A stretch of 64,000 bases of DNA from Gammaproteobacteria bacterium (GCA_050298595.1 JBNKUM010000067.1:2976-66975); one strand, 5' to 3'; positions 6,663 to 62,697 are shown, counted from the first letter of the stretch. Made by a program: numbers and translations. Notes: generated from the letters alone by a model not told the origin.

Positions 6663-6849
6663 AACAACCCAAAAGAAACCGAACTCGACATAATTTAACA
6701 GCCATTTAATCTAATTAAATAGCTATTAACTGGTAGATTCAGTCATTTCATCCAGCAGCTTTTTGGGATGAATCAGGGCATCCAGCTGGTTATCGTAAAT
6801 CTTGCCCAATAACTGAGCCACATGTTAAATCTTTATTTTTTATCTGACT

Positions 6850-7091
6850 TGAACCTAGAATCCGCAGTTGGACGAATTGTAGTGCGTTTGTGGTGGTAAC
6901 GCAGAGATACGCCGCCTCAAACGTGCAATTCAGCTCGTAGCGGGACTCACCTGTTGGGTTTTCAGCATGGATGCTGTTATTTCGCGAATGCATGGAAGCA
7001 TAGGAGCGTGAAAATACAAACTGACTATGATCGTTTACGAAACAGTGGGTTACTCTCCAATGCGAGCGGTTAACTGCGGAATCCAGGTTAA
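6850..7091. repeat. MITE-like element with ~20-bp terminal inverted repeats and a conserved ~100-bp core
   Basis: Left end gaacctagaatccgcagttgg (6850-6870). Right end ttaactgcggaatccaggtt (7070-7089) is its imperfect reverse complement. Internal core 6896-6996 recurs at 40246-40346. Confidence 0.7.
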
Positions 7092-7152
7092 AGGGAGTTG
7101 CTATCACCTAAGAGATTATGACCCTTTGATGCTATTGATCAACTACTAAAAG

Positions 7153-7215
7153 ATTATCCACGAAGCACACGAATATAAACCTCTATTAATCTTCTTGCTC
7201 TTCATGGTTAATAAT
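7153..7215. repeat. REP-like imperfect palindrome (CCACGAAG variant)
   Basis: attatccacgaagcacacgaa...aacctctattaatcttcttgctcttcatggttaat. Shares its left arm and the aacctctattaatcttc segment with the element at 12643-12772. Confidence 0.6.
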
Positions 7216-7279
7216 ACTTTCTAACCATGAGAAAAGTATTCAATATAGGTTGTCCATGTTTGCATTAAATCCCTGAAAT

Positions 7280-8889: not shown

Positions 8890-11800
8890 TTATTTTAAAT
8901 ACTGTTTTATAAAAGTACTTATCCCCTCAAGATCAAACCCTTTGGCCAGTTTGTTAAGCTTTCGGGCAAAAGAAATGTAAACCTCATTCTCTGCTTGCAG
9001 ACGAGAGGCCAGCTCCTGTATTTCAAAGACTTGTCCTATATCGGCTAACTGATACAACTCACGCAGCTGGTCGCTGGGCGGTGCAACCAGTGCTGCCTCG
9101 TGGTCGCTTTCTTCCTCAGCGTATACCAGGGTCAATCCCAGTTGCTTTTCCAGGATGTGGTAGATCTCATCGAAGCGGTAGGGCTTGCTGACGTAGTCAT
9201 CCATGCCTGATGCACGTAAGGTTTCCTCCTCCTCTTTTAGGGCGGATGCGGTAACGGCGACGACCTTCACCTGGTCCCCACCCGGCAATTCGCGAATGCG
9301 ACGGGTGGCCTCGTCCCCATCCATGACTGGCATGCGTCTATCCATCAAGATCAGGTCTGGCCTCCATTGCTGGAATATCTGTATACACTCTTCGCCGTTC
9401 TGCGCCACCTTTACGTCCAGGCCGAGGTCAGTCATCACCCTGGCGAGCAGGATTTGACTGTCCCGCTGATCCTCGGCGATCAGGATGCGGCGGGTGGCCT
9501 GCCCCGGCGCGAGGCCTGCCACTGCTCCGTGAGTTTCAGCACTGAGGCGGATCATCTCCGCTTCATCGGGCTCATTCAGCGGCAGATCGACGCGAAACAG
9601 CGAGCCCTGGCCCGGTTTGCTTTCAACGGAGACACTTCCACCCATCAGTTGCACGAACTGGCGCACGATGGCAAGTCCCAGGCCGGTCCCCTCCTGCGAA
9701 GAAGTGCCTGCGGACAGCTGTTCGAAAGGCTTGAACAGACGCCGTTGATCCTTTTTGCTAATCCCTGGGCCATTATCCTCGACCTCGATCAGTAGATGGT
9801 GATGGGCATTGTGTTTGCTGCGCAGGCGCATGGTTACGCTGCCCTGTTTGGTGAACTTCACCGCATTGCTCACCAGGTTGACCAGGATTTGCCGTAGCCG
9901 CGCCTCGTCGCCCTTGATGTAGCGAGGAAACGCTGACGACTGATCCAGCTCTAGTTGCAGCCCCTTCTGTTGCGCCTTCAGTCTCATCATGTCACTTACC
10001 TCACGCACCAGTTCATGCAGGTCAAAGGTGGAGATCTCCAGTTGCTGTTTACCCGCCTCAATCTTGGAGATCTCCAGTACATCGTTGATCAGCTTGAGCA
10101 GGTGATCGCCACTTTTGTTGATGATTTCCAGGTTTTCCCGCTGGCTGGAATTCAGAGACTGGTCCTTACGCATCAGTTGCGAGAAGCCGAGGATGGCGTT
10201 GAGTGGGGTGCGCAACTCATGGCTCATGTTGGCGAGGAAGGTGCTCTTCGCTTTGTTGGCCGCCTCTGCCGCATCACGCGCCAGGCGCAGCTCATCAGTA
10301 CGTTGCTGCACCAGCTCTTCCAGCTCATCCTTGTGCCGACGTAACGTCTCCTCTGCCTGTTTTTGATAGGTGATGTCGTGTGCAATCCCCAGCACGCTGA
10401 CCACCTTGTCCTCCTCATCGTGCTCTGGCGCATACAGGACTTCAAAAGTGCGCGGACCGTCGACCGTTTGCCATTGCATCTGAAGCTTCTGTGTTTGTGC
10501 GGTCGCAAACACCTGAAGGATGGATTGCTCAAGTTCGTAATTTATTGCGTCATCACCCGGCTTACCAATTTGTGTCGGGCTTTTGCCGATGAAGGTCTTG
10601 CGCGGGATGCCAAACGTTTTTTCTACAGACGGATTGACGAACAGGTGACGGCAGTCAGGGGCGAAACGGGTGATACAGTCAGGCAGGTTCTCGATCAGTG
10701 TGCGATAGTCTCGCTCTCGCGCTACCAGTGTCTGTTCTGCAAGTTTGCGCTCGCTAATATCCCGTACCAGGGCAAGATTATAACTCTGTTCGGCATATTC
10801 AATGAAATTGGCGCTAATTTCGACCGGTATGATACGCCCATCCTTTGCTCTATGCCGTCCCTCGAAGGTGATTGATCTCTTTTCCTGCAGATCCCGCCAA
10901 TGCTCCGGCCAGCGAACGGCCGGCCAGTCAGGGTCGATATCCTCCACGCCAGAAGCAAGCAATTCATCGTGAGAATAGCCCAGAATGCGACAGGCCTCCT
11001 CGTTCACGAAGTGGAATCTGGCCCTTTCGTCGATCAGGAATGCCGCTTCATGCACACTATTCAGGGCAAAGCTCAGCAGAGTGACCTGATGTTCGGTCTG
11101 CTTACGCTCTGTGATATCTTCCGAAATCCCCAGTAGATAGACAGGTAGTCCCTCTTTGTTACGCAGGGCAAGTTTTCTGGTATGCAGAATGCGGGTGCCG
11201 TTTACCGTTTCGACAGGCTCTTCCGGGATGTCCACTACACCCGTCTGAGTCAGCACATCACGGTCCTTGCTAATGAAGAAATCGGCCTGTTCCTTCGGAA
11301 AGAAGTCGTAATCATGCCGTCCCAGCAACTCTTCGCGACTAAGTCCCAACAGTTCCTGACCTGTACGGTTGAAGCGGATGAAGCTGAGATCTGATGCACG
11401 TTTCAGAAAGACCATTACCGGGAGATTGTCGACGATGTCGTCGAGCAGGTTTCGGCTCTCCGTGAGGGACCTGTTTAGTAGCAGCATGCCGATGCCAAAG
11501 AACAGCAGTAGCGTAAACACCACCGCGACGGCAACAACCTTGTCTCGGTAAAGTTCGTAAAAGTTTACCGGACGGTTAATAACGACCGAACCTTCAGGCA
11601 GAGACTTATCTTGCAGGTCGAAGCGCTGCAACTGCTCGTAATCGAAGAGGTAACGGTTCGCACTCTCCCATTCGATCGGGATTGAGTCTGCTTCTTCACC
11701 ATTGAGGATACGTATAACCTGCTGGGCTGCCACTTCGCCGTGGGCCTCGCCAGAGGTCAGCTTTCCACCGACAATACCATCGCCAAACATGTAATCCCAG

Positions 11801-12552
11801 ACCGAAAAGACTGGCTGCCTGCTGGCGTCACTGATGGCACGTACGGCAGTACTGCTGTCGATGGTCTCGCCATCATCGTTGGTGGGCCGGTTCAAGATGA
11901 AAACAACTGTATCTGACCCAGCGAGCCTGACTCTCTCCTCAATGTGCGAGAGTACTGGATCATCGAAAAGTTCAAGTTCAGAGGGCCTGCTCCGTTGTTC
12001 ATTGTCCTTTTGCAGACTCGCGAAGTTTCCACGGAAAGTCGGCGACTGCTCACCGAGTACAAGTACACGCCGCCCGGGCAGCAACTTATCAATGATCTCC
12101 AGCGTTTCCTTGAACGCAGCCTCTTCGGCAACACCCGTCAGGTTTTTGTATCGGTCCCGAATGTTGGGACTGAGGCCATTAATTCCACAGAAAACCACAG
12201 GTACGTCGGGCGCCAGCAGTGGACGCACGTCCAGCACAAAATCCAGAGCATTGTTGTCCGTTACCGCAATGACCTCAGGGGGATTCCTCTTGAATTTGCT
12301 CTCAAGGGTCTGCAGGAGATCCTGACGCATGAGATCCTTTTGCTCGCGGTAGCGTAAGGAATCGAGATACTCGATGTGCAGGTCAACCGGTATACCGTTA
12401 TTGGCAAGGGCGTTGATGAACCCCTGATGCTGAGAATCGGTCCAGGGCATGCCGCTGTGATAGGAATGGATTAATAGCACACTGTGACTCTGAGCGACAG
12501 CCGTTGCCGACAGCCCCAGCAGAGCAATGAACAAGACAAGTAGTCGAATCAT
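8890..12552 (-). CDS. Hybrid sensor histidine kinase with fused periplasmic ABC-SBP-like domain, PAS repeats, HisKA-HATPase, receiver and a C-terminal extension
   Basis: 1220 aa. Order: signal/TM, ~330-aa SBP-like periplasmic domain, TM (VVAVAVVFTLLLFFGIGMLLL), three PAS-like blocks. Then [19 protein letters not shown] (H-box), [12 protein letters not shown] (G2), and receiver ILIAEDQRDSQ...MDRRMPVMDG. Confidence 0.9.
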   Translation of the reverse strand: MIRLLVLFIALLGLSATAVAQSHSVLLIHSYHSGMPWTDSQHQGFINALANNGIPVDLHIEYLDSLRYREQKDLMRQDLLQTLESKFKRNPPEVIAVTDNNALDFVLDVRPLLAPDVPVVFCGINGLSPNIRDRYKNLTGVAEEAAFKETLEIIDKLLPGRRVLVLGEQSPTFRGNFASLQKDNEQRSRPSELELFDDPVLSHIEERVRLAGSDTVVFILNRPTNDDGETIDSSTAVRAISDASRQPVFSVWDYMFGDGIVGGKLTSGEAHGEVAAQQVIRILNGEEADSIPIEWESANRYLFDYEQLQRFDLQDKSLPEGSVVINRPVNFYELYRDKVVAVAVVFTLLLFFGIGMLLLNRSLTESRNLLDDIVDNLPVMVFLKRASDLSFIRFNRTGQELLGLSREELLGRHDYDFFPKEQADFFISKDRDVLTQTGVVDIPEEPVETVNGTRILHTRKLALRNKEGLPVYLLGISEDITERKQTEHQVTLLSFALNSVHEAAFLIDERARFHFVNEEACRILGYSHDELLASGVEDIDPDWPAVRWPEHWRDLQEKRSITFEGRHRAKDGRIIPVEISANFIEYAEQSYNLALVRDISERKLAEQTLVARERDYRTLIENLPDCITRFAPDCRHLFVNPSVEKTFGIPRKTFIGKSPTQIGKPGDDAINYELEQSILQVFATAQTQKLQMQWQTVDGPRTFEVLYAPEHDEEDKVVSVLGIAHDITYQKQAEETLRRHKDELEELVQQRTDELRLARDAAEAANKAKSTFLANMSHELRTPLNAILGFSQLMRKDQSLNSSQRENLEIINKSGDHLLKLINDVLEISKIEAGKQQLEISTFDLHELVREVSDMMRLKAQQKGLQLELDQSSAFPRYIKGDEARLRQILVNLVSNAVKFTKQGSVTMRLRSKHNAHHHLLIEVEDNGPGISKKDQRRLFKPFEQLSAGTSSQEGTGLGLAIVRQFVQLMGGSVSVESKPGQGSLFRVDLPLNEPDEAEMIRLSAETHGAVAGLAPGQATRRILIAEDQRDSQILLARVMTDLGLDVKVAQNGEECIQIFQQWRPDLILMDRRMPVMDGDEATRRIRELPGGDQVKVVAVTASALKEEEETLRASGMDDYVSKPYRFDEIYHILEKQLGLTLVYAEEESDHEAALVAPPSDQLRELYQLADIGQVFEIQELASRLQAENEVYISFARKLNKLAKGFDLEGISTFIKQYLK

Positions 12553-12642: not shown

Positions 12643-12772
12643 ATTAACCACGAAGTACACAGAGCGCACGAAGAAAAACCTCTATTAATCTTCGTGACCT
12701 CGGCAACTGCTCGGCTCAGGCTTCCTGCGTTGTTCTAATTACGGGCATCCTGCCCTAATTCGTGGTTAATTA
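12643..12772. repeat. REP-like palindromic element (CCACGAAG variant, long form)
   Basis: Begins attaaccacgaagtacacagagcgcacgaag and ends ctaattcgtggttaat, so the termini are inverted. Shares aacctctattaatcttc with 7153-7215. Confidence 0.65.
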
Positions 12773-27286: not shown

Positions 27287-30100
27287 TTAGTCTTTCAATG
27301 CTTTTAATATGGTCGTGTAGTCAAAGTTCCTGGCGAGCTGAGTCAGTTTGCTCTGTAATTCCTGGTCGTGCATCGAAACCTGCTGGATGACCGCCTCAAT
27401 GCGCTTGGACTCCAGGCTTTCTAGCACTTCAACGAACTCATTGCGCAGTGCTTCAGGCAGGCTATTCAACATCTGCGGCGTTAACGATATATCCGGTTCT
27501 ATTACGTCTGATTCCACAGCGCTCTCATAAAGATATTTCACGCCTAGCTGTCTTGAAAGGCAATCATAAATCTCGCCCGGTCGGTAGGGCTTGCGCACAT
27601 AGTCATCCATGCCACTAGCAAGCATTTCGTCCCGCTCTTCGTCAAACGCCGATGCAGTCACTGCAGCAATCTTAACCTCCTTGCCACCCGCTAATTCACG
27701 GATGCGCCGTGTCGCCTGTATGCCATCCATCACAGGCATGCGTCTATCCATCCAGATGAAATGTGGATGCCAGCTCTCAAACAGTTGTACCCCCTGCTCA
27801 CCGTTCTCGGCTATCCTGACCTTAAAACCAACAGATTCCATAAACCTGCTCAGTAGCAACTGATTATCACGCTGGTCTTCCACGATCAAAATACGATACT
27901 CGCCCTGGTCAGGGGCCAGCGCCATCACTTCGTCCTTGACGATCACCTGCTCTGCCATAGTAATATCTGCCTCCTGTGCTTCAATCAGGGGTAGGTCGAG
28001 CCTGAACAACGAGCCTTTACCTGGAGCACTTTCCAGCCAGATATTCCCGCCCATCATCTTTACAAATTGACGCGTAATCGTTAATCCCAGCCCGGTGCCT
28101 TTATTGGTACCCTGTTCGCCAAGTTGCACAAAAGGCTCGAAAACCTTTTGCTGGTCTTCAACCGCTATGCCAATGCCAGTGTCCTCTACATCGATCAGCA
28201 GATGAGAGATCTTATTATCCTTTGTGTCCAGGCGTAGCGTGACCCCCCCCTGCTCAGTATTTTTGATGGCGTTGCTTACCAGATTGATCAGAATCTGCCG
28301 TAGACGGGCCTGATCACCGACAATGAAACGTGGGAATAGAGAACTCTGGTCGATCCTTAATTGCAGGCCTTTGTTGAAAGCACGTTGCTGCATCATGTCA
28401 ATAATATCGCGCACCAGAGTACCCAGATCGAAGGCTGCATTTTCCAGATTCACCTGTCCCGCTTCGATCTTGGCCATATCTAGCACATCGTTAATCAGCG
28501 CCAGCAGATGTTTACCGCTACGACTAATAATTTCGATGTTCTCACGCAGGGATTCGTGTAGTAATGGATTATTGGTCATGAGTTCGGAGAACCCGAGGAT
28601 GGCGTTCAGAGGTGTGCGAAGTTCATGACTCATATTGGCCAGGAAGGCACTCTTGGCACGGCTGGCTGATTCAGCGTGTTCCTTGGCAGATAGCAACTGC
28701 CGATTTGAATCGGCTAACTCGTGAGTACGTTCATTCACCTTTGCCTCCAGGCCCCCAATTAATGCATGCAATTGACCTGCAATATTATTAAAGACGGATG
28801 TCAGCTCACTGATTTCATCTTCCGATTGGGGTGCTATTGGATGCTGTAGATAACGTCTCAGAGCAATACGCTGGCTATACTCTCTATCTACTTCTTCTTC
28901 CACCATCTCAGGTTTCTCCAGACCCATCGCAGATACTGCCCTGGTAAGCGCCCTGATCGGTGCAACGATTCTACTGATCAAGGAGTATCCGACGGCACCT
29001 CCCAACACAAGAATAAACACAGACGCGGCAATAATGCCCATGACGGTTTGGCGGATGGTGGCAATGGTGTTTTCCCTCGAAAGTGCCTGACTCAGAATAA
29101 GCGAGCTACCATCCTCTGCTATCTGCCAGGGCATAGAAGCCTGGTAGTAGGAATCCCCTCCTATATTTACGGTATGCAACTGGATAAGCGGGTCTCTTTG
29201 CGCAGACAAAACTTCAGTTGGTGTAGCCAGATCTACCAATTGAACACGCTGCTGCCCATCTGCGGAGATAATAGCCGGCAACAAACCCGTCTTCTCAGTA
29301 AGATTTTGCAGAAAGCCTTTGTCAAATACCTGAGTAAAAACAAACATACCGATCCTGACCGGTAAGTCCTCCTGCGTTAGCTGGGCTTGCAAAGCTGTCG
29401 TAGGCGTGGCTATGCTCAGGTTTTCGGCAATGACTTCGTTAAAAGACTGGCGAATCATACCTTGAATCGGCACTATCACGTGCAGCTCGATAACCTCTTG
29501 TGCAGGAAAATCGAAGCTTACCGTCACCCTGTCCACATTGGGAAAGTGGCGATGGATTGATCCTGGCAGTGGGATTTCTGACCAGTTACGCCAGTCATCC
29601 AGCGGTACCTTACCATTTCTGTACTGCTGAATCCCAACCACCCTAGTTTGACTATCGTGTCGCTTTATCATGCCCGCCGCCTGCGGCGTCACAAAATGTG
29701 ACAGGTCATCATCTAGATACACCGCCACACTGGACAGGCGTGCGGAGAGCAGGATTAACTGTAAGCGGTTTAAGGATGTGACCCGGTTAAGACTTACAGC
29801 GCTGTCGAGAGGAGCGCTAGGTTGATTTTTCAGCTTGAGTAGCTGGCTGTATAAAACAGCCATATCGCTAAGATTCTTTTCGTCACGCGCGGCTTGCATA
29901 GACACATTAGACATACGGTTGCGCATTTCCTGTAGATCGTTTTGAAATACGATCAACTCACGTGACAATCGGTTATAGGCTTCTGCCTGACTCTCGCGGT
30001 TAATCAGGTATGAAGCCAGCAGGGCATTAAGCAGCGTAACCGCTAACAGAAATGCCGCAAAGATAGCCAGTAGCTTGTATTTAATACTTACAATTTTCAC
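27287..30100 (-). CDS. Hybrid sensor histidine kinase (HK1): periplasmic domain, HAMP, HisKA-HATPase, receiver, C-terminal extension
   Basis: 937 aa with two TM segments flanking a ~330-aa periplasmic region. [20 protein letters not shown]; GTGLGLTITRQF; receiver ILIVEDQRDNQ...MDRRMPVMDG. Paralogue of 31766..34588. Confidence 0.9.
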   Translation of the reverse strand: MKIVSIKYKLLAIFAAFLLAVTLLNALLASYLINRESQAEAYNRLSRELIVFQNDLQEMRNRMSNVSMQAARDEKNLSDMAVLYSQLLKLKNQPSAPLDSAVSLNRVTSLNRLQLILLSARLSSVAVYLDDDLSHFVTPQAAGMIKRHDSQTRVVGIQQYRNGKVPLDDWRNWSEIPLPGSIHRHFPNVDRVTVSFDFPAQEVIELHVIVPIQGMIRQSFNEVIAENLSIATPTTALQAQLTQEDLPVRIGMFVFTQVFDKGFLQNLTEKTGLLPAIISADGQQRVQLVDLATPTEVLSAQRDPLIQLHTVNIGGDSYYQASMPWQIAEDGSSLILSQALSRENTIATIRQTVMGIIAASVFILVLGGAVGYSLISRIVAPIRALTRAVSAMGLEKPEMVEEEVDREYSQRIALRRYLQHPIAPQSEDEISELTSVFNNIAGQLHALIGGLEAKVNERTHELADSNRQLLSAKEHAESASRAKSAFLANMSHELRTPLNAILGFSELMTNNPLLHESLRENIEIISRSGKHLLALINDVLDMAKIEAGQVNLENAAFDLGTLVRDIIDMMQQRAFNKGLQLRIDQSSLFPRFIVGDQARLRQILINLVSNAIKNTEQGGVTLRLDTKDNKISHLLIDVEDTGIGIAVEDQQKVFEPFVQLGEQGTNKGTGLGLTITRQFVKMMGGNIWLESAPGKGSLFRLDLPLIEAQEADITMAEQVIVKDEVMALAPDQGEYRILIVEDQRDNQLLLSRFMESVGFKVRIAENGEQGVQLFESWHPHFIWMDRRMPVMDGIQATRRIRELAGGKEVKIAAVTASAFDEERDEMLASGMDDYVRKPYRPGEIYDCLSRQLGVKYLYESAVESDVIEPDISLTPQMLNSLPEALRNEFVEVLESLESKRIEAVIQQVSMHDQELQSKLTQLARNFDYTTILKALKD

Positions 30101-30184: not shown

Positions 30185-31546
30185 CTACCGATGAGCATAA
30201 CCGTTATGATCTTGAATGTCCTGATCAATCTTTTCGGCTGCTTTACTGAGTTCGGCCTGCACATCAGCCCCTTTAATTATATTATCTACCGCCTCGGCGA
30301 AGACTTTGGTGATAGTTGCATAGGCTGGCGTGAGGGGACGAGGCACAGCCCAACCGGCTTCTATCTGTTGAACATACACGTTTAAAGGGCCACCTGGCTG
30401 GTAAAGCTCTGACCTGGCAAATGCCGATTTACGCGCCGGTACACCAGGGTGAATACCTGTCCAACGCACAATCTTGTCGGGTTGCAGAATATAGTCCAGG
30501 ATCGCCCAGCTCCCTTCAGGATTCTGGCAGGAGCTGGTGATACCAAAATTCCAGGCACCCAAACCAGTTTTGGGTCCATTGCCAAAGTCAGGCATGGGGA
30601 TGACAACCAAATCTTCGCCCAAAGCATCCGCATAGCTGCTATAGGTCCAGTGTCCTACCCAGGAAAGCGCCGCTTTGCCAGAAGCAAAATCCGTATCTCC
30701 CTGTGGGCTGGGGTTAGCCCAGCCCTTCTGGAACCAGCTCTGGAAATGCTGCATAGCTGTGACGGATTGAGGTCCATCCAGTACGCCTTTGGCAGACTGG
30801 TAGTTATTGCGATCAATCAAGTCACCGCCGAAAGACTGCAGGATGGGTGAAAAACCATAGGTAAAGAATTCACCGCGCCCATAGTTGATTTTCATATCCA
30901 GTGGATATTCAACGTCTGGGACGGCGGCCAGTTTTTCTAAAGCCGCTTCAAACTCAGCCAGATCCCATGGCTGCTGGATGGTAGGTATGCGCACGCCAGC
31001 TGCCTTTAGGTACTGGCGATTGCCATACATCGCCAGACCAGAGTCAACTATACCCAGTGTATACAGATTATTATTGTAGGTTCCCTGGGCAATGATAGAG
31101 GGCAGGAAATCGGCCTTCATCTGTGCTGACACAAAGCGGTCTATGGGTTGCAGGTAACCCAGCCAGGCCAGATATGAGACCATAGGTCCGTCAAAGAAAA
31201 GCAGGCAGGGCAGATCACCTGTGCGCCCGGCAGCCAGGATGCGGTCGGTGTAAATGCCTTCTGGCACCAGTGTCATCTCGGCTGAGTAGCGATCCTGCTC
31301 CTTGTTAAAGTCCTTCAGATTGAGTTCCATTGCTTTTAAGGCATTACCGGTACCGGCATTGAACCATACCGTCACGATTTGATTCCTGCTAACTGCGGCT
31401 GATGGAGGCTTAATCTTAGTGGGCGCTGGTTCAGGCGCTATACTGGCTGGTGGGCTTTTAGCAGTGGGTTCACTGGGTGGATCGCAAGCCGTTAGCACGG
31501 ATGCTAGCATGAATAAAATTATTAGATAACTAACCTTCTTGTGCAT
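30185..31546 (-). CDS. Orphan ABC-type (family 1, sugar/MalE-like) substrate-binding lipoprotein (SBP1)
   Basis: 453 aa. Lipobox LTAC followed by Asp at +2 and a Pro-rich linker. No permease or ATPase gene adjacent. 84 nt upstream of HK1. Confidence 0.8.
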   Translation of the reverse strand: MHKKVSYLIILFMLASVLTACDPPSEPTAKSPPASIAPEPAPTKIKPPSAAVSRNQIVTVWFNAGTGNALKAMELNLKDFNKEQDRYSAEMTLVPEGIYTDRILAAGRTGDLPCLLFFDGPMVSYLAWLGYLQPIDRFVSAQMKADFLPSIIAQGTYNNNLYTLGIVDSGLAMYGNRQYLKAAGVRIPTIQQPWDLAEFEAALEKLAAVPDVEYPLDMKINYGRGEFFTYGFSPILQSFGGDLIDRNNYQSAKGVLDGPQSVTAMQHFQSWFQKGWANPSPQGDTDFASGKAALSWVGHWTYSSYADALGEDLVVIPMPDFGNGPKTGLGAWNFGITSSCQNPEGSWAILDYILQPDKIVRWTGIHPGVPARKSAFARSELYQPGGPLNVYVQQIEAGWAVPRPLTPAYATITKVFAEAVDNIIKGADVQAELSKAAEKIDQDIQDHNGYAHR

Positions 31547-31765: not shown

Positions 31766-34588
31766 TTATTCAGCCTTATTTAGTGCTCTTAATATAGCAG
31801 GGTAATCAAACTTACTGGCGAGCTGGCTGAGTGCCCTGTGTAACGCCGGGTCAATCGCCTCGGTGCGCTGGATCACTGCCTCAATGCTCTCGGGCTCCAG
31901 ACTTTCCAGTACCTCAATAAGCTCACTACGTAACACTTCTGGTAACTTTTCCAGCATCTGTGGCGTTAATACTACATGCTCATCTTGCGCCTTTGACGCA
32001 GTACTTCCGTACAGATATTTAACGCCCAGGTGTTTTGATATCACATCGTAGATTAGCGTCGCTCTGTATGGTTTGCTCACGTAATCGTCCATACCGATTT
32101 TTAGAATTTCATTGCGCTCCTCTTCAAAGGCCGAGGCGGTCACCGCGACAATCTTTACCTCTTTGCCGTCAGGCAATTCCCGGATACGTCGTGTTGCCTG
32201 CATGCCATCCATCACCGGCATATGTATATCCATCCAGATTAAATGTGGATGCCAGCTCTGAAACAGTTGTACACCCTGCTCACCATTTTCCGCCAGCTTT
32301 ATCTGGAAACCAACACTCTCCATAATTTCAGAAAGAAGGAGTTGATTGTCGCTCTGGTCTTCGACGATCAGGATACGGTATTCGGGTTGTCCCGGCGCAA
32401 GGCTAGTCACAACCCCCCTGCCAATCTGATCCGGTTTGCTGATATCCTGTTCCAGTGCTTCCTGCAAGATCAGTTCTATGCTGAATACCGTGCCTTTATC
32501 AATCTCGCTTTGCAGGCTGATACTGCCACCCATCATTTGCACGAACTGGCGCGTAATAGCCAGCCCGAGTCCCGTGCCCTTACTGCTATCCTTTTCACCC
32601 ACCTGTACGAAGGGGTCGAAGATAAGTTGTTGATCTTCAGGGCTGATACCTATGCCTGTATCCTCAACCTCGATCAGCAGATGAGATATTCTGTTTTGCT
32701 TTGTGGCCAGACGCAGAGTCACGCCCCCCTGCTGGGTAGCTCTGATGGCATTCCCTATCAGATTGATCAGAATCTGGCGCAGGCGCGACTCGTCGCCTAC
32801 GATGTAACGAGGGAACTGCGATGACTGGTCGACATGTAATTGCAGATCCTTATTTTCCGCGCGTATGCGCATCATATCGATAACATCTCGTAGCATACCG
32901 CCCAGATCAAAAGGCTCATTCTCCAGTTGTACCCGCCCGGCTTCTATCTTGGCCATTTCCAACACATCGTTGATCAGCGTTAGCAGGTATTCGCCACTAC
33001 GATTAATAATATTATTATTGTGCTGTAATCTTTCAGGCAGTGATGGATCCTGGTTCATCAGGTTGGAAAACCCGAGGATAGCGTTCAATGGGGTACGCAG
33101 TTCGTGGCTCATGTTGGCAAGGAAAGTACTCTTGGCTCGGTTGGCAACTTCGGCCTTTTCTTTGGCCGCCTGTAACTCCTGAGTGCGTTCGTCAACGCGT
33201 TGCTCCAGTGTTTCAAACGATTGCCGCAGTTGCCTGATCATGGCATTGAAGGCGGCGGCCAGTTGCCCTACTTCATCACTGGCTTTAAGGTCAATCTCGA
33301 TCAGCTTATCCGAGACTACAGGCGTATCTTTCGCTGTGGAACTATTAATCTGGGTGTTCAGACCGATGCGTGAAACGCTTTCCGTTAAGGCCACAATCGG
33401 TTTGACCAGACGATCTAACAGTATATAGCCCAATATCCAGACCACGATCAAAACCAGAGTAGCCAGGCCAATGAGTGCAGTAACGGTTTCTCGTATCTTC
33501 TGGGAGGCGCTCGCCCCTGATTGCGTAAACCCGATAATCAGCCGGGCTTTATCGCCATAGTGCAACAGGGTCAGGGCCTGGTAATAGGTTTCATCATCCA
33601 CGCTCAGAATCCTTTGTTGCATCGGTTGTTCAGGTGTCGCCTGACTCTGTTGCACCCATTGCACCAGATCTTCCGGCTTCATCTTCATTTTGACGATTTC
33701 GATTTGATGCATCCCATCTAACGAATACAGTGCTGGTAATAAACCACTTTTCTGCGCAATGCCTTGCAAAAATGCCTGGTCAAAGACCTTCTTGAATACA
33801 AAGGCACCAATGAGAACTGGTTTGATTTGGTCGGGATTTTTCTGGTTAAGCGCTTCCTGAGAAGCGATGACTGGATTGTTGACCACAAATCCTTCGGAGG
33901 AACCCAGGGTAATATTGTTTCGCATTACCGTTCGAGTAATTGCCTGTACCGGGACAACGATTTGCAATACCAACGCCTGCTGTTCAGAAAAATAAAAGGA
34001 AATCATGGGTTGCCTGGGTAATGTAATTTGAGATGAGATTAATGGAGGAGGGGTACCCAGCGGCCATATTGGCCAGTTATTGAACTTCATCTCTCCGCTC
34101 TGATCTGGATCAGTTTTAATCAGCCTCTGCTGCCCCTCCCGAAACACACTGATGCCAGCCTCAGTAGTAGTCACGAAATGACTTAACTCATTGCCCGTGT
34201 AAACGGCGGCGCTGGAAAATCCGGCCGTACGCAGAATAATCTGAAACCGATTCAGTGAAATGGTTTTATCGAACAGGAATCCGCGTTCATTCTTTGATGC
34301 TAGCTCAGGATAGTTCTTAAATTGCTGTGTTTTTGCATACAGCGTAGCCAGATCACTCAAGTTATCGATTCCGGTAACATTTTTTTCGGCAACCCTGCGC
34401 AGATCAGTTATCGTTTCCTGCAACTCGTACTGTAACAGGTCGGTCTGTTTGGTCAGGCTGCTAAACGCCTCTCGCTCGCTTTGTTGCGTGGTCAGGTAGA
34501 TGGCGAGTGCTACATTAAGCCCAGCGATAATGATCAGGGCCGTGCTAAACGCCAGCAGCAATTTCGTCTTGATACCCGATATGTTCAC
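31766..34588 (-). CDS. Hybrid sensor histidine kinase (HK2), paralogue of HK1
   Basis: 940 aa with the same architecture as HK1. [20 protein letters not shown]; [13 protein letters not shown]; receiver [11 protein letters not shown]...[10 protein letters not shown]. Confidence 0.9.
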
Positions 34589-34614: not shown

Positions 34615-35982
34615 CTATTTGATCGGATAGCCGCCGTGATCTTTTATATCCTGGTCAATTTCCTGCGCCGCCCGGTGAAGTTCCGTTTTGACGTCTGCGC
34701 CATTAATAATATTCTCCATCGCTTCGGCAAAGACCTTTGAGATCACGGCATACGCTGGAGTGATCGGACGAGGAATGGCGCGCTCGCTTTCCAGTTGTTG
34801 TGCAATCAAATGTAAGGGGCCTGATTCACCATACAATTTTGACTGTGCCAGCACTGACTTCCGGGCCGGTGGGCCTCCGTTTTCGTTCGTCATACGTAAC
34901 ATTTCCTGCGGGGATAGCAGGAACTCGATGAATGTCCAGGCGCCAGTGGGATCCGGGCAATTGCTGGATATCCCCCAGCTCCAGCTACCCATCGCGGTTT
35001 TTGACCCATACCCAAAATCAGGCTGCGGTAACAACACCAGATCTTCCCCCAGAGCCTCGGCATGCGGTTTGTACATCCAGTGCCCCACCCAGGCGAGGGC
35101 CGCTTTTTTAGATCCGTAAAAATCGTCGTCCGTGGTCCTGGATTTGCCGGCCCAGCCCTTTTCAAACCAGCTCTGAAAGTGTTGCATGGCCTCAATCGAC
35201 TGGGGACTATCCAGCACGCCAGTTGCATGCTGGTAGCTGCTGCGATCAATCAGATCACCACCAAATGACTGGATGATGGGCGTAAAACACCATGAATAAA
35301 ACTCGCCAGGACCATAATTAATTTTCATATCAATTGCATACTCTACGTCAGGCAGGGCGGTCAGTTTTGCCAGCGCCTCTTCAAATTCGACCAGATTCCA
35401 CGGTTTTTCAAAGGTCGGTATGCGGATTCCAGCCGCGTTCAGATAGCGGCGATTGCCGTAGATTACCAGCCCTGAGTCAAACTGTCCGAGGCTATAGAGC
35501 TGTCCGTTGAAGGTTCCCTGGGTGAGAATCGAGGGCAATAAGTCGGCTTTTAGATCTGCTGAAACAAAACGGTCAATCGGCTGCAGATAGCCTGGCCATG
35601 CAAAGTTATAGAGGTATGGACCGTCAAACTCCAGGGCGCAGGCCAAACTACCAGACTGTGCGCTGCCAATGATCCGGTCAGCATAGATTTCCGGTGCAAT
35701 CGGCACATATTCTATGGTGTATTTATTTTGAGCCTGCTCAAAGGCTTCCACCGACTTAGCAAACACATCACCTTCTATGCTGCCAGGTAACATATGCGTC
35801 CAGACGCTGATCACTTTGCGCCTGTCTGTCTGGGGCGAGGGTGTTGAAGGTAGCGCTGTTGGTACTGAAGAGGGAGCGGCTAAAGCAGTGGATGTAGTCA
35901 AGTCCGAAATCCTGCAAAAAGTTAGTATCATGGCCACCAGAATCAGCTTATTTTGATAAAGTATTTTCTTTCTCATTTTCAC
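34615..35982 (-). CDS. Orphan ABC-type (family 1) substrate-binding protein (SBP2), paralogue of SBP1
   Basis: 455 aa with a signal sequence and a Pro/Ser/Thr-rich linker. Long blocks shared with SBP1 (DMKINYG, IQSFGGDLIDR, MQHFQSWF). 26 nt upstream of HK2. Confidence 0.8.
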   Translation of the reverse strand: MKMRKKILYQNKLILVAMILTFCRISDLTTSTALAAPSSVPTALPSTPSPQTDRRKVISVWTHMLPGSIEGDVFAKSVEAFEQAQNKYTIEYVPIAPEIYADRIIGSAQSGSLACALEFDGPYLYNFAWPGYLQPIDRFVSADLKADLLPSILTQGTFNGQLYSLGQFDSGLVIYGNRRYLNAAGIRIPTFEKPWNLVEFEEALAKLTALPDVEYAIDMKINYGPGEFYSWCFTPIIQSFGGDLIDRSSYQHATGVLDSPQSIEAMQHFQSWFEKGWAGKSRTTDDDFYGSKKAALAWVGHWMYKPHAEALGEDLVLLPQPDFGYGSKTAMGSWSWGISSNCPDPTGAWTFIEFLLSPQEMLRMTNENGGPPARKSVLAQSKLYGESGPLHLIAQQLESERAIPRPITPAYAVISKVFAEAMENIINGADVKTELHRAAQEIDQDIKDHGGYPIK

Positions 35983-39533: not shown

Positions 39534-40202
39534 ATGAAACGAACCATTAAGTCACTATCATTCAGGGCTGAATTTTCAATTGTGATCCTTATCGCTTTTG
39601 GATACTTCATGTTATCCAGCCTGCTTTTCATTTTTATCCCATACACTAACGCACCTGTTTCTGAGTCTCATCTCAGGTTTTTATTGGTCTACGAAACTTT
39701 GGTAACCATAGCGCTTTGGAAATTTTTATCTTTTCGAGGGTGGAAGATTCAACAGTTAGGATTAGTGCCTTCGATTCGAGATACTCTTATCGGTATTGGA
39801 CTTTTCGTTGTAGCGTACACTGCCTACCTGGTTGTATGGCTAATTTTTAACAACATAGTCACTGGGTTGGAGGATCAATCACGCGGACTTGTTTCTTCCG
39901 GACTAAGTCTGACAACCGTGCTGATAGTTTCCATTCTGAATCCGATCTTTGAAGAGGTCTTTGTGTGTGGCTATATCATCACGGCTCTAAGAAAAATGCG
40001 AAGTATCTCATTCGCTATTAACATGAGTATAGGTATAAGACTTGTTTACCACCTTTATCAAGGTTCGGTCGGGGTTATTGGTATAATCCCGCTGGGATTT
40101 ATCTTTGCGTATTGGTATGCAAAGACGGGACGTTTGTGGCCTGTAGTTATCGCACATGGTCTAATTGACTTTCTGGGCTTATTTGCCTATACGCAAAAGT
40201 AA
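39534..40202 (+). CDS. CPBP (CAAX/Abi) family intramembrane glutamic protease
   Basis: 222 aa, polytopic. Motifs NPIFEEVFVCGY, HLYQG and AHGLIDF match the three CPBP motifs. Confidence 0.8.
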   Translation: MKRTIKSLSFRAEFSIVILIAFGYFMLSSLLFIFIPYTNAPVSESHLRFLLVYETLVTIALWKFLSFRGWKIQQLGLVPSIRDTLIGIGLFVVAYTAYLVVWLIFNNIVTGLEDQSRGLVSSGLSLTTVLIVSILNPIFEEVFVCGYIITALRKMRSISFAINMSIGIRLVYHLYQGSVGVIGIIPLGFIFAYWYAKTGRLWPVVIAHGLIDFLGLFAYTQK

Positions 40203-40245
40203 GGCTTCCGCGTCCTGCTCACGCCCCTTGCCAATGTCCCGACAG

Positions 40246-40440
40246 GTAAGGTAGAGATACTCCGCCGCAAACGAGCAATTCAGCTCGTAGCAGAATTCAC
40301 CTATTTGGTTTTCAGCATGGATGATGTTATTTCGCGAATGCATGGACGCCTACATGGACGTAGGTGGTACGAGCTCAGGGGTGAGCGAAGGTAGGACAAT
40401 GCAGGACGCCTAAAGGGATTTAGGTGATAGAGCGAAAGCT
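40246..40440. repeat. Second copy of the ~100-bp repeat core (no terminal inverted repeats)
   Basis: 40246-40346 aligns with 6896-6996 at roughly 85-90% identity by hand alignment (about 12 mismatches in ~101 nt). The downstream aaaggga + ttaggtgatag segment is inverted relative to copy A (ctatcacctaa). Confidence 0.7.
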
Positions 40441-40697
40441 GGATGCCAGAGCAAACCGGTATCCAGAGAGTCAATTGCTGGATTGTCATACCCTGTGGTT
40501 GCACCAGCAAAGGCATAATCGGAAAGGATGGCGGAATAATGATTAACCAAATGCTCGACCCAGATGGTACCGTCAGAAAATCTCTTTACGTTGCCGTTAT
40601 CCGTAAGACTGTCACCGAATGTCAAACAGTACTATAACCCAGAGCACTCCCTGAGGTAAAAAGAGAAAAAAACAGAACAAGTACTAAATATTGCATA
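40410..40697 (-). pseudogene. GDSL/SGNH lipase gene remnant (frameshifted and 3'-truncated)
   Basis: Block-I motif FGDSLTDNGN in ORF 40410..40625. A signal-peptide-like ORF (MQYLVLVLFFSLFTSGSALGYSTV*) starts at ATG 40697 in a different frame. Homology stops where the repeat core begins (~40440). Confidence 0.65.
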
Positions 40698-41330: not shown

Positions 41331-43027
41331 TGGCACAGCCTGTGTGAAAACCCTACTTAGGAGTATAATAAGTCATTCAAATAGACAGGTGAAACAATGA
41401 CTGGATTCATTGAAGGCGTAGCCAGAATACAAGCCACCTTATTTCCTGAATTACTTGACGATTACATCAGCGAAGAAAATCCCGTTCGCGTTATTGATGC
41501 CTTTGTCGATAATCTTGACCTCGATAAATTGGGTTTCAAAACCTACCCAGCAATAACCGGTCGTCCTGGTTACCACCCATCCAGCATGCTCAAGCTGTTT
41601 ATCTACGGTTACCTCAATCGTATCCAGTCTTCTCGTCGTTTAGAAAGGGAGTCGGGGCGTAATGTCGAGTTAATGTGGTTACTCGGTCGTCTATCTCCCG
41701 ACTTTAAAACCATAGCTGACTTTAGAAAAGATAATGGTAAAGGCATTAAAAATACCTGTCGAACCTTTATCGATTTGTGCAGACAATTAAATATGTTCAC
41801 CGATGCTATTGTCGCCATTGATGGCAGTAAATTTAAAGCAGTCAATAGTAAAGAAAATAATTACACACCCAAGAAACTACAATTTCATATAGACCGGGTT
41901 GAGAAGCATATCGAAGACTATTTACAACAACTCGATACCGCTGACAGGGCAGAAAAACCAGAGACTGATGGCAGGTCTATCGAAGATAAAATCACCTGGC
42001 TTAAGAAAAGACTCGCTGAGTTAAAGGCACTGGAAGGTGAGGTGGACAATCATCCTGACAAACAACTATCAACAACGGATCCGGACTCTCGATTAATGAA
42101 AACACAAGGGATGACCAGAGTGGTTTGTTACAATGTACAAACGGCCGTTGACCCCAAAAACCACCTGATTGTAGCCCATAAGGTAACGAATACACCTGAT
42201 CGTGGACAACTCTGCGGTGTAGGTAAACTGGCTCAAGACGCACTGGATACTAAAGGGATCACTGTTATTGCTGACAAAGGTTATTACAGTGGCCAGGATA
42301 TCAAAGATGCTCAGGATGCGGGTATGACGGTACTTGTACCCAAAGGTGATACTTCTGGCAGCGAGAAAAAAGGCATATTTAACCGATCCCGGTTCGAATA
42401 CGATGCAGAGCAAGATAGATATATTTGCCCCGCCAAACAAGAGTTATCCTATCGATTCACTTCGGTTGAGAAAGGACTATCGTTAAAGAAGTATTGGGCC
42501 TATGAACCCACTTGTAGGGCTTGCTCGATGAAACCACAATGCTCTAACAGTAATCAGGCTCGTAGAATCACTCGTTGGGTTCATCAGGATAGATTGGATC
42601 AAATGGACAAGTTACTCTCTTCTCAGCCAGAGTGCATGCTCATCAGAAAGCAAACCGTTGAACACCCTTATGGCACGATTAAATGCTGGATGGGATCAAC
42701 TCATTTTTTAACGAGACAATTCAAAAATGTCAGCACCGAAATGAGTCTGCATGTTTTGGCTTACAATTTAAAACGCATGATGTCGTTATTTGGACAGGCT
42801 GGATTAGTCGCCGCAATGACAAAGGTATAGGGATTAATGGCCCATAGTAATTGCATCTATAAAATACGTCGATATGACGTGTTTATTCTTTTGTGTAAGC
42901 CAGACAATTTTCTTATTCATAAAAAGGACTCTGAAAATAAGGAAGCTCAGGACTTAGCATAAGAAGTCTGAATAATGACTGGAGGACGAAATTATTAAGA
43001 TAATAGTTTTTACACAGCCTGGGCACA
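41331..43027 (+). mobile_element. IS1182-family insertion sequence
   Basis: Imperfect ~21-bp terminal inverted repeats: tggcacagcctgtgtgaaaac (41331-41351) versus the reverse complement of gtttttacacagcctgggcac (43006-43026), 16/21 matches by hand. They flank a single transposase ORF. Confidence 0.75.
41397..42830 (+). CDS. IS1182-family DDE transposase
   Basis: 477 aa, uninterrupted. N-terminal pattern LFPELLDDYISEENPVRVIDAFV...GRPGYHPSSMLKLFIYGYLNRIQSSRRLERE is typical of IS1182/IS5-like transposases. Confidence 0.85.
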   Translation: MTGFIEGVARIQATLFPELLDDYISEENPVRVIDAFVDNLDLDKLGFKTYPAITGRPGYHPSSMLKLFIYGYLNRIQSSRRLERESGRNVELMWLLGRLSPDFKTIADFRKDNGKGIKNTCRTFIDLCRQLNMFTDAIVAIDGSKFKAVNSKENNYTPKKLQFHIDRVEKHIEDYLQQLDTADRAEKPETDGRSIEDKITWLKKRLAELKALEGEVDNHPDKQLSTTDPDSRLMKTQGMTRVVCYNVQTAVDPKNHLIVAHKVTNTPDRGQLCGVGKLAQDALDTKGITVIADKGYYSGQDIKDAQDAGMTVLVPKGDTSGSEKKGIFNRSRFEYDAEQDRYICPAKQELSYRFTSVEKGLSLKKYWAYEPTCRACSMKPQCSNSNQARRITRWVHQDRLDQMDKLLSSQPECMLIRKQTVEHPYGTIKCWMGSTHFLTRQFKNVSTEMSLHVLAYNLKRMMSLFGQAGLVAAMTKV

Positions 43028-56412: not shown

Positions 56413-56745
56413 TCAGTTAGAAAAAGAGCAAACAGATAACTTGTTGAAAAATAGGTAAAAATCAATGCGATTGCCTGCAAATTCTGTTCACTCATTGGGC
56501 AACCTGATAAAGCTATAAGCATTTGTGAAAAATACATGTCCAACTGCGGAATCCAGGATTATTTTGCCAATCCTCGAATTGTCCGTAGAGAGCTATACGG
56601 AATAGCTACTTATCGCTGCTTTACCAAAAAGTAATTGCTGAGTTTAATTGACGCAATATGCATATATCTTAAATAATTAATGCGACATGATATTTAATAA
56701 GCTACAGTACGCAATATAAACAACAATTACACATATGTCGACATC

Positions 56746-62648: not shown

Positions 62649-62650
62649 AC

Positions 62651-62682
62651 CTGAATCCGCAGTGGCTCAACTGCGGATCCAG
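62651..62682. terminator. Bidirectional stem-loop between convergent mqo and prpF; sequence-related to the MITE terminal repeats
   Basis: ctgaatccgcagt-ggctca-actgcggatccag: 13-bp stem with one mismatch, 6-nt loop. The left flank ttgaacctgaatccgcagtgg nearly matches the left end of the 6850-7091 element. Confidence 0.55.
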
Positions 62683-62697
62683 CTTGAAAGAAGTTTC

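Follow-up and report, generated by a model that had tools for sequence, protein, structure and literature searches.

In a 64,000 nt stretch of DNA from a Gammaproteobacteria bacterium (GCA_050298595.1, JBNKUM010000067.1:2976-66975; hereafter the window), positions 6854-7087 hold a 234 bp element, copy A, that belongs to a family of short interspersed repeats. We interpret this family as miniature inverted-repeat transposable elements (MITEs), that is, short, non-coding, non-autonomous DNA transposons, derived from an insertion sequence (IS) of the IS1380 family, and put the probability of this interpretation at about 0.8. An initial annotation of the window had suggested a MITE-like non-autonomous family, and this is borne out by many further copies, by terminal inverted repeats (TIRs) and by 5 bp target site duplications. 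The family is probably undescribed. A search of the literature with the arm sequence found no description of it, and the papers that mention both terms, as represented largely by their titles and the openings of their abstracts, include no IS1380-derived MITE.

Distribution and canonical form

A 22-mer from the core of copy A was scanned over one genome per species and found 25 loci, 24 of them in a single gammaproteobacterial metagenome-assembled genome (MAG), JBNKMF01, the sister MAG. Individual loci outside the window are given here as L numbers. One of the 24 loci, L008, is on a low-coverage contig that was binned with JBNKMF01 and belongs to the species of the window. Some loci hold tandem matches to the 22-mer that are 50, 97-98 or 145 nt apart. 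Comparison by blastn with full-length copies revealed approximately 39 elements in the 190 kb covered by the 25 loci, all of them intergenic and many within 0-20 nt of a stop codon. The copy A insertion is also carried by other assemblies of the window's species, and three Logan assemblies are interrupted within it, all at one base, as a repeat would lead one to expect.

A scan of metagenomes with the arm pattern recovered at least 120 loci, and the names of the assemblies involved include marine sediment, sediment and microbial mat. A covariance model, R1, built from 24 canonical copies, gave at least 101 matches at E<1e-5 in 100 of the metagenome loci listed, with G+C contents of 0.36-0.69, and this spread suggests many different hosts. 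The initial annotation had advised counting the copies and defining their ends and duplications; the outcome is the approximately 39 MAG copies, the metagenome loci and a 5 bp duplication of consensus WTNAW (see below).

Among the metagenome copies, the arm-to-arm distance peaks sharply at 233-239 nt, and the canonical form is approximately 236 nt long. These copies share sequence with copy A over only about 20-28 nt at each terminus, and it is the architecture that is common to them. The left part of a canonical copy consists of the left TIR, the 5' strand of a long internal stem (P1), the motif GGCAAGGCGCGA, a variable hairpin (P2), the motif GCAACGCCGCC and the 3' strand of P1. The right part consists of an invariant GTAGCG, a sub-terminal palindrome (P3, TCACC-loop-GGTGA), about 55 nt of A+T-rich sequence, AGCGGT and the right TIR. 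Deletion forms of 77-200 nt are common among the copies.

Terminal repeats and target site duplication

The TIRs are 18-20 bp long with the consensus CCTRGAWTCCGCAGTTG, and the window and MAG loci together yielded 50 arms. The true ends of the family are CCTGG at the left and CCAGG at the right. The helix that the TIRs form is 97 % paired, and its sequence is conserved while covariation is almost nil, which is what a protein-binding site would be expected to show.

The flanks were compared for 61 two-armed copies from the sister MAG and >100 metagenome contigs. The 5 nt immediately outside the ends are direct repeats with the consensus WTNAW, identical in 22 of the 61 copies and matching at four of the five positions in another 22; as a control, the next 5 nt outward never gave four or more matches. 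Several flank pairs are not palindromic (ATGAA/ATGAA, ATCAT/ATCAT, GTTAT/GTTAT and TTGAG/TTGAG), which rules out that the flanks are merely an extension of the inverted repeat. A 5 bp duplication at the flanks is the signature of a staggered-cut transposase.

This family-wide comparison moved the limits of copy A inward, to ends of CCTAG and CCAGG. The initial annotation had placed them at 6850 and 7091, and the inverted-repeat arms that it reported are real, but its outermost bases fall in TTGAA and TTAAA, which are the duplication and not part of the element.

Resemblance of the ends to those of IS1380 family ISs

The copy of ISEcp1 in plasmid pC15-1a was used as the reference. ISEcp1's left inverted repeat (IRL) is CCTAGATTCTACGT and the reverse complement of its right inverted repeat (IRR) is CCTAAATTCCACGT, to be compared with the family consensus CCTRGAWTCCGCAGT. 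The outer 9 nt of the family, CCTAGATTC, are identical to the IRL, and 10 of 12 nt match the IRR. ISEcp1 also includes TTTCACCCATTGGGTGAAAG, located 75 nt inside the IRL, of which 16 nt are identical to the P3 consensus of the family at the same distance from the end. An alignment of the IRL of ISEcp1 with the bottom-strand sequence of eight family right ends puts terminus and palindrome into matching columns. Two Gram-positive members of the IS1380 family, ISSsu5 (TTTCACCCCTTAAGTGA) and IS1678 (CTTCACCCGTTAAGTGA), have the palindrome approximately 76 nt inside the end. Thus, the palindrome TTCACCC..GGTGA is found 74-76 nt from the terminus in the MITE family, ISEcp1, ISSsu5 and IS1678, and it looks like a conserved and functionally important site of the IS1380 family. 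Read on the bottom strand, the right half of the element would on this evidence be the IRL end of an IS1380 family IS.

In these IRL ends of ISEcp1 (L032:797-890), ISSsu5 (L155:530-625) and IS1678 (L156), which represent Enterobacteria and Gram-positive cocci, the palindrome reads TTCACCC-N3-5-(G/A)GTGA and is located 75-76 nt from the end. In ISEcp1, a palindromic site resembling that for integration host factor (IHF), AATCAAAGCCTTGATA, lies between the palindrome and the terminus. The interval between terminus and palindrome can be read as holding a near-consensus IHF site (WATCAR-N4-TTR) both in ISEcp1 and in the family, where the IHF-like motif of the consensus is ATCATAGAGTTR.

ISEcp1 makes 5 bp target duplications (PMC2887853), and the IS1380 transposases have been used as the prokaryotic outgroup of piggyBac (PMC10813416). 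We propose that a DDE transposase of the IS1380 family, supplied in trans, would bind both terminal repeats and that insertion at WTNAW sites would then duplicate 5 bp; the proposal draws on the anatomy of the ends and on the 5 bp duplications of ISEcp1. The right half would be the IRL end of an ISEcp1-type parent, with a matching terminal repeat forming the left end, and the cognate IS1380 family IS would be expected to end in CCTGGAWTCCGCAGTTG. As no transposase was found (see below), we infer mobilization in trans from the anatomy. The strand that folds, here called the top strand, is antisense to the expected direction of the parent's transposase gene.

The combination of the invariant GTAGCG with the hairpin TCACC..GGTGA that follows it recalls repetitive extragenic palindromic (REP) sequences, which consist of a GTAG head plus a hairpin. 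An element of the REP/REPIN type, moved as single-stranded DNA by a REP-associated tyrosine transposase (RAYT; HUH/Y1) that recognizes GTAG and the hairpin, would also be in keeping with strand-specific structure and with the palindromic doublets of right ends found at L019:7596-7703 and L022:2030-2106. However, REP and IS200/IS605-type elements make no duplications, whereas variable 5 bp direct duplications are present here. TIRs of 18-20 bp are present, the ends match an IS1380 IRL in both sequence and spacing, and no recurrent open reading frame (ORF) of any kind adjoins the arms. We therefore regard movement by a RAYT as very improbable and retain derivation from an IS1380 family IS.

Covariation and strand specificity of the internal stem

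The left repeat is separated from the IRL-type half by a stem-loop domain of approximately 125 nt, made up of P1 and P2. RNAalifold predicted 46 pairs, with compensatory changes in 26 of them. In a 51-pair structure, 93.8 % of the cells in the alignment are paired, compared with 34-38 % when the partners were slid, and 180 cells with double changes were observed where shuffles gave 62±6, none of 500 shuffles reaching 180, although neither control is tree-aware. In P1 (columns 19-62 with 100-144), nearly every pair varies yet stays paired.

The structure also distinguishes the two strands. G·U outnumber A·C combinations by 121 to 13 in the aligned copies and by 63 to 8 in 12 lineage representatives sharing <75 % identity, G·U being the larger number in all 12. 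Folding of the consensus gives -49.9 kcal/mol for the top and -30.8 kcal/mol for the bottom strand, and in single copies the energy favours the top strand, in 22 of the 24 aligned copies and in 21 of 24 copies outside the alignment. Because the sequence drifts while the pairing is kept, and on one strand only, the P1/P2 fold is selected as single-stranded RNA or DNA. The covariance and folding analysis that the initial annotation had recommended thus gave a strand-specific fold with 26 of its 46 pairs compensatory. In the sister MAG copies, the terminal stem has a conserved A·A mismatch, which was dropped from consideration because the metagenome copies do not share it.

The initial annotation had also raised a small RNA gene. 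In this explanation, which is compatible with a MITE, P1/P2, GTAGCG and the hairpin would be read from the top strand as a mobile gene with the IS1380-type ends as its carrier. The strong covariation, the large excess of G·U over A·C in 12 of 12 lineages and the better folding of the top strand in most copies all speak for it, as do a length that stays near 234-239 nt even in very diverged copies and the conservation of the unpaired motifs GTAGCG, GGCAAGGCGCGA and GCAACGCCGCC. However, scans for sigma-70 promoters in or before the structured part found nothing consistent, and the structure begins 19 nt from the end of the element, too close for a promoter to travel with it. Copies point at random in either direction relative to the gene on their 5' side (24 the same way, 28 the opposite), and in 22 copies the top strand is out of reach of read-through; the lack of an orientation bias argues against a simple read-through RNA. 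Rfam 15 gave no match at the gathering score on the window elements or on 20 canonical-copy loci, and permissive E-values brought up nothing of relevance. Short derivatives with no P1 are frequent. Hence, what stands of the small RNA gene is the strong strand-specific covariation, and we consider such a gene unlikely.

For a MITE of IS1380 origin, our guess is that P1/P2 would have come down from the parent IS as a structure that is cis-acting or regulatory, an RNA element in antisense orientation being one example. More broadly, but only tentatively and at odds well short of even, P1/P2 together with GTAGCG may represent a new class of RNA or single-stranded DNA structure carried on IS1380-type elements and maintained by selection in the non-autonomous copies of many marine bacterial lineages. 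Such a module might act as an antisense or regulatory RNA on the transposase, or be a cis-acting fold needed for transposition.

Points against an IS1380-derived MITE

Several findings weigh against a MITE derived from an IS1380 family IS, and the first concerns the missing partner. A tblastn search with the ISEcp1 transposase, even at E=20, found nothing in the window, the 25 MAG loci or the metagenome loci listed, and in the same sequences no pair of arms 0.7-6 kb apart encloses an ORF. Clustering of the ORFs within unpaired arms revealed none that recurs, only chance matches in housekeeping genes, among them those for NADH dehydrogenase and a multihaem cytochrome. A canonical copy used as a blastn query had no match in the plasmid collection, and in viral contigs there was one chance match, inside a coding region. 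The search for an autonomous element with the same termini, which the initial annotation had proposed, therefore came up empty in the window, in the MAG and listed metagenome loci, and in the plasmids and viral contigs.

Secondly, folding showed nothing unusual in the structure of the right ends of ISEcp1, IS1247, ISSsu5 and IS1678, so P1 is not a general trait of IS1380 elements, and a DDE mechanism that acts on double-stranded DNA gives no obvious reason for structural selection on one strand. Thirdly, in 10 of the 22 flank pairs that match at four of five positions, the mismatch is at the central N, which is more than even decay would give, and the flank pattern may therefore partly reflect target preference in addition to duplication. 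The duplication of ISEcp1 itself, TATGA, does not fit WTNAW. Finally, no empty site was recovered; the contigs from the same species all carry the elements. In a search for an empty site via PrpF homologues, the nearest relatives were not syntenic downstream of prpF.

Structure and remodelling of copy A

Copy A is a complete but degenerate MITE with its folded top strand on the plus strand, where model R1 matched it over model positions 1-236 (93.6 bits, E 1.4e-28); the minus strand scored only 24.3 bits. The z-score of its RNA fold is -3.6. The duplication consists of TTGAA on the left (6849-6853) and TTAAA on the right (7088-7092), which match at four of five positions, and was assigned from the WTNAW direct repeats of the family. 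The left TIR, CCTAGAATCCGCAGTTGGAC, is at 6854-6873 and the right TIR, TTAACTGCGGAATCCAGG, which is an IRL-type end when read on the minus strand, is at 7070-7087; like those of the family, they form a helix that is conserved in sequence without covariation. The arm motif AACTGCGGAATCCAGGTT, with up to three mismatches, has three matches in the window where 0.03 are expected, at 6852-6869 (minus), 7072-7089 (plus) and 56542-56559 (plus).

Between the TIRs of copy A, all parts are again on the plus strand. A remnant of P1 occupies 6874-6936, with its 5' strand at 6874-6896 and its 3' strand at 6911-6936, and is followed by the GTAGCG junction (6937-6942), which is unpaired in the consensus fold and invariant in 24 of the 24 aligned canonical copies. 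P3 (6947-7012) is represented by TCACC at 6947-6951 and GTGAA at 7008-7012, and is split by an inserted, lineage-specific module of approximately 50 nt, C2 (6958-7007, limits within a few nucleotides), that contains the 22-mer used in the genome scan. The A+T-rich sub-terminal region at 7013-7069 aligns without large gaps to the interval between the IRL and the palindrome of ISEcp1.

In the cmsearch alignment, copy A has a 57 nt insertion within the P3 loop, and the apex of P1 is reduced from 64 to 13 nt. Relative to a canonical copy in the sister MAG (L012:847-1082), it lacks 52 nt of the P1/P2 apex. The C2 module sits between GGGT and TGAA of P3, and its removal restores TCACC-TGTTG-GGTGA. 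Copy A is probably immobile because the P1 apex is missing and a 50 nt module is lodged inside the palindrome. The 'payload core' that the initial annotation treated as a single unit does not survive this dissection, being composed of the 3' strand of P1, GTAGCG, half of P3 and the inserted module.

Copies in this lineage have been remodelled by insertion of modules, tandem amplification and deletion. In another MAG of the species (L028:1022-1588, compared with 6663-7279 of the window), the 50 nt module is absent from the copy A locus and the next 32 nt differ at nine positions, while the flanks are 100 % identical for approximately 300 nt in both directions. Either copies have exchanged sequence by gene conversion, or the assembly path is a chimera that runs through another copy. 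In the sister MAG, copies contain zero, one, two or three tandem copies of C2 with a spacing of 50 or 97-98 nt, and reach lengths of 300-590 nt via tandem modules of 47, 50, 97-98 and 24 nt.

Arrays of mini-hairpins were also noted at L020:7650-7835, L024:6330-6480 and L010:6400-6560, built from units of 24 nt (GGTACGAGACTATGGATGGTCGAA, three copies), about 22 nt (GAACAATGCAGGAGCTATTGTC, three copies) and 47 nt (GGCTTCCGCGTCCTGCTCACGCCCCTTACCTATGTCCCTATAGGCAA, up to four copies). The runs of N in L006 and L008 coincide exactly with such arrays. In L019:7596-7703 (108 nt) and L022:2030-2106 (77 nt), two right, IRL-type ends are present in inverted orientation without a left-type end, and IRL-IRL palindromic derivatives thus also form in this family.

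The ORF on the minus strand across copy A (6790..7107) is spurious, as the initial annotation had suspected, because it has no Pfam match and because the difference between copy A and the related copy B (see below) amounts to 11 non-synonymous changes, one of them a stop, and two synonymous ones.

An inverted 11-mer, TTAGGTGATAG, had been taken as a hint of structure. The structure is real by covariation, but the 11-mer was rejected as a feature of the family. It is present at 7101-7111 (minus), outside copy A, and at 40420-40430 (plus), and an exact match is found nowhere else in the window or the 156 loci, except at the same two sites in other assemblies, so that it is absent from every other copy. 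In copy B (40410-40432, plus), AAAGGG is followed by TTAGGTGATAG after 2 nt, and to the right of copy A (7092-7130, minus) the same pair occurs with 10 nt between its parts instead of 2. On a rough estimate, the chance of this match is about 0.003-0.01, and the pair beside copy A may be the relic of an older, decayed copy.

Other family members in the window

The blastn comparison with full-length copies located the family in the window at 6852-7089 and 40201-40452 and in a solo arm. The armless core, the solo arm and the 13 bp hairpin between mqo and prpF, all listed in the initial annotation, belong to the same family on the evidence of R1, blastn and the arm motif. Pfam searches agreed with the neighbouring genes that it had named, finding Mqo, PrpF and a CAAX protease, and the lipase as a weak N-terminal GDSL-lipase fragment.

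Copy B (40201-40452, plus) is an internal fragment without arms, defined by blastn against full-length copies of the sister MAG, with an nhmmer match at 40239-40329. It begins at the stop codon of the CAAX protease gene and abuts the truncated GDSL-lipase gene, and its sequence is also found in L008. The recurrence of the core at an identity of about 85-90 % was upheld, the value being 88 % over 108 nt (6895-7002 versus 40245-40352, 13 differences), but copy B is longer than was initially recognized.

An IS at about 41332-43026, with a 477 aa transposase (DUF772, DDE_Tnp_1 and DDE_Tnp_1_6) and the terminal repeats GGCACAGCCTGTGTGAAAAC and GTTTTTACACAGCCTGGGCAC, adjoins the truncated GDSL-lipase gene and copy B, making this a local patch of decayed or mobile DNA. 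As a partner for the MITE, this IS, which is of the IS5/IS1182 type, was rejected because its termini are unrelated.

The solo arm, GTCCAACTGCGGAATCCAGGAT at 56538-56559 (minus), is a remnant of a left-type TIR identified by the arm motif and blastn. It matched R1 weakly (10 bits, E 0.03, at 56474-56557, minus), and forms no hairpin on folding.

The hairpin between mqo and prpF is an arms-only derivative, CCTGAATCCGCAGTGGCTCAACTGCGGATCCAGC (62650-62683), in which a TIR, a 6 nt loop and a second TIR make up 34 bp and form a 13 bp hairpin. It is flanked by TTGAA at 62645-62649, which includes the TGA stop codon of mqo, and by TTGAA at 62684-62688, a perfect direct repeat (5/5). A shorter arm core, ACTGCGGATTC, matches both halves of the hairpin at 62645-62687. 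R1 matched it with 17.9 and 14.7 bits (E about 1e-4 to 1e-3), and the folding energies are -19.7 and -23.1 kcal/mol (z -4.5 and -5.1). On the minus strand it conforms to the pattern of a terminator, with a 13 bp stem and a T-rich tail 16 nt past the prpF stop codon, whereas the plus strand has no T-run; the terminator call is a match to a consensus pattern only. Relatives have ordinary terminators downstream of prpF, followed by different genes.

The initial annotation had seen this hairpin as the empty form of an element that elsewhere carries a payload. A pre-existing REP-like or terminator hairpin would then be the target, with a payload of about 200 bp entering its loop, and 62645-62687 would be an unfilled site. 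That these arms are found both with an interior and without one, and that a second arms-only case is found in an unrelated metagenome contig (L040:2364-2396), is what such a scheme would give. However, the duplication lies outside the arms both in full copies and in the arms-only copy, and none is found at the boundary between arm and interior. The arms are continuous with an IS1380 IRL end in sequence and spacing, and arms-only forms are rare (2 among >100 copies), while intermediates of 77-200 nt are common. We give hardly any credence to a hairpin target; the empty-hairpin model has the order backwards, the arms being transposon ends and the hairpin a deleted derivative. Since the arms-only form recurs independently and deletion forms of 77-200 nt are common, the simplest origin of 62650-62683 is an internally deleted MITE that has kept both repeats and its duplication.

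Other features of the window

A 39 nt intergenic repeat with 85 % identity between its two copies was found at 7159-7197 (CACGAAGCACACGAATATAAACCTCTATTAATCTTCTTG) and 12658-12696 (CACAGAGCGCACGAAGAAAAACCTCTATTAATCTTCGTG). Both copies are downstream of minus-strand genes, and the second has 8 bp inverted ends, CACGAAGA and TCTTCGTG. This repeat might represent a further family of small repeats, or else a hairpin common to both sites with a regulatory or terminator role.

The window also includes a gene pair duplicated in tandem, with ORFs of about 940 aa (27287-30100 and 31766-34588) and about 455 aa (30185-31546 and 34615-35982). The two copies of the pair, which are 69-75 % identical in DNA, lie approximately 4.48 kb apart. 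The 940 aa gene has a third paralogue, less closely related than these two, at 8890-12552, a hybrid kinase with PAS, HisKA and response-regulator domains.

Significance and comparison with known systems

IS1380 family elements such as ISEcp1 drive the spread of antibiotic resistance genes, and how their ends are recognized is poorly understood. That a palindrome approximately 75 nt inside the IRL is conserved both in clinical ISEcp1 and in marine MITEs suggests that the site is functional. The MITEs themselves appear to form a large, undescribed IS1380-derived family that is widespread in marine sediments. Selection for structure in a single strand is not predicted by the usual picture of MITE mobilization as double-stranded DNA, and if the domain were an RNA regulator or a cofactor of transposition, this would pose a testable question for the superfamily that includes piggyBac. 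In practical terms, short-read assemblies break at these elements, and spurious ORFs arise from them in these genomes.

Like other bacterial MITEs (Correia/NEMIS, ERIC, RUP and the Tn3-derived TIMEs), members of this family are short, non-coding, multi-copy and intergenic, often near the 3' ends of genes, have TIRs and a duplication, can fold over the whole element into a hairpin and have no autonomous partner nearby. They differ in that their ends are of IS1380 type and in that the interior includes an independently covarying, strand-specific domain that is kept across lineages with <75 % identity. In the lineage of the window, the element is a mosaic with fixed ends and with internal modules (47, 50, 97-98 and 24 nt) in zero to four tandem copies, and in this it is like the Streptococcus pneumoniae BOX elements (boxA-boxB(n)-boxC) and the bacterial interspersed mosaic elements (BIMEs), but there is no relationship in sequence, and amplification of modules is here a lineage-specific overlay on an element of 236 nt. 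BOX elements are not known to have transposase-type termini or 5 bp duplications. REP sequences and REPINs resemble the family in having GTAG followed by a hairpin, strand-specific folding and palindromic doublets. However, the family has duplications, long TIRs and IS1380-type ends, is not a REP doublet, and no RAYT gene was seen.

Among the IS1380 elements, ISEcp1, ISSsu5 and IS1678 have IRL ends that, like those of the family, start with CC and have a palindrome at about 75 nt and an A+T-rich spacer, and ISEcp1 further shares the outer 9 nt, CCTAGATTC, and the length of the duplication, 5 bp. Unlike the IS1380 elements, the family has no transposase gene and is 236 bp rather than approximately 1.6 kb long, its WTNAW target is more palindromic than the TATGA of ISEcp1, and its covarying stem of about 125 nt and invariant GTAGCG set it apart from the four reference ISs. 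The eukaryotic counterpart for comparison is piggyBac, which has a TTAA target, terminal repeats that begin with CC(C)TAG and a sub-terminal palindromic internal repeat. The family differs from it in its bacterial host and in a duplication of 5 bp instead of 4 bp, but is like it in having a palindromic A+T target, here TTNAA-like, terminal repeats starting with CC(C)TAG and a sub-terminal palindrome.

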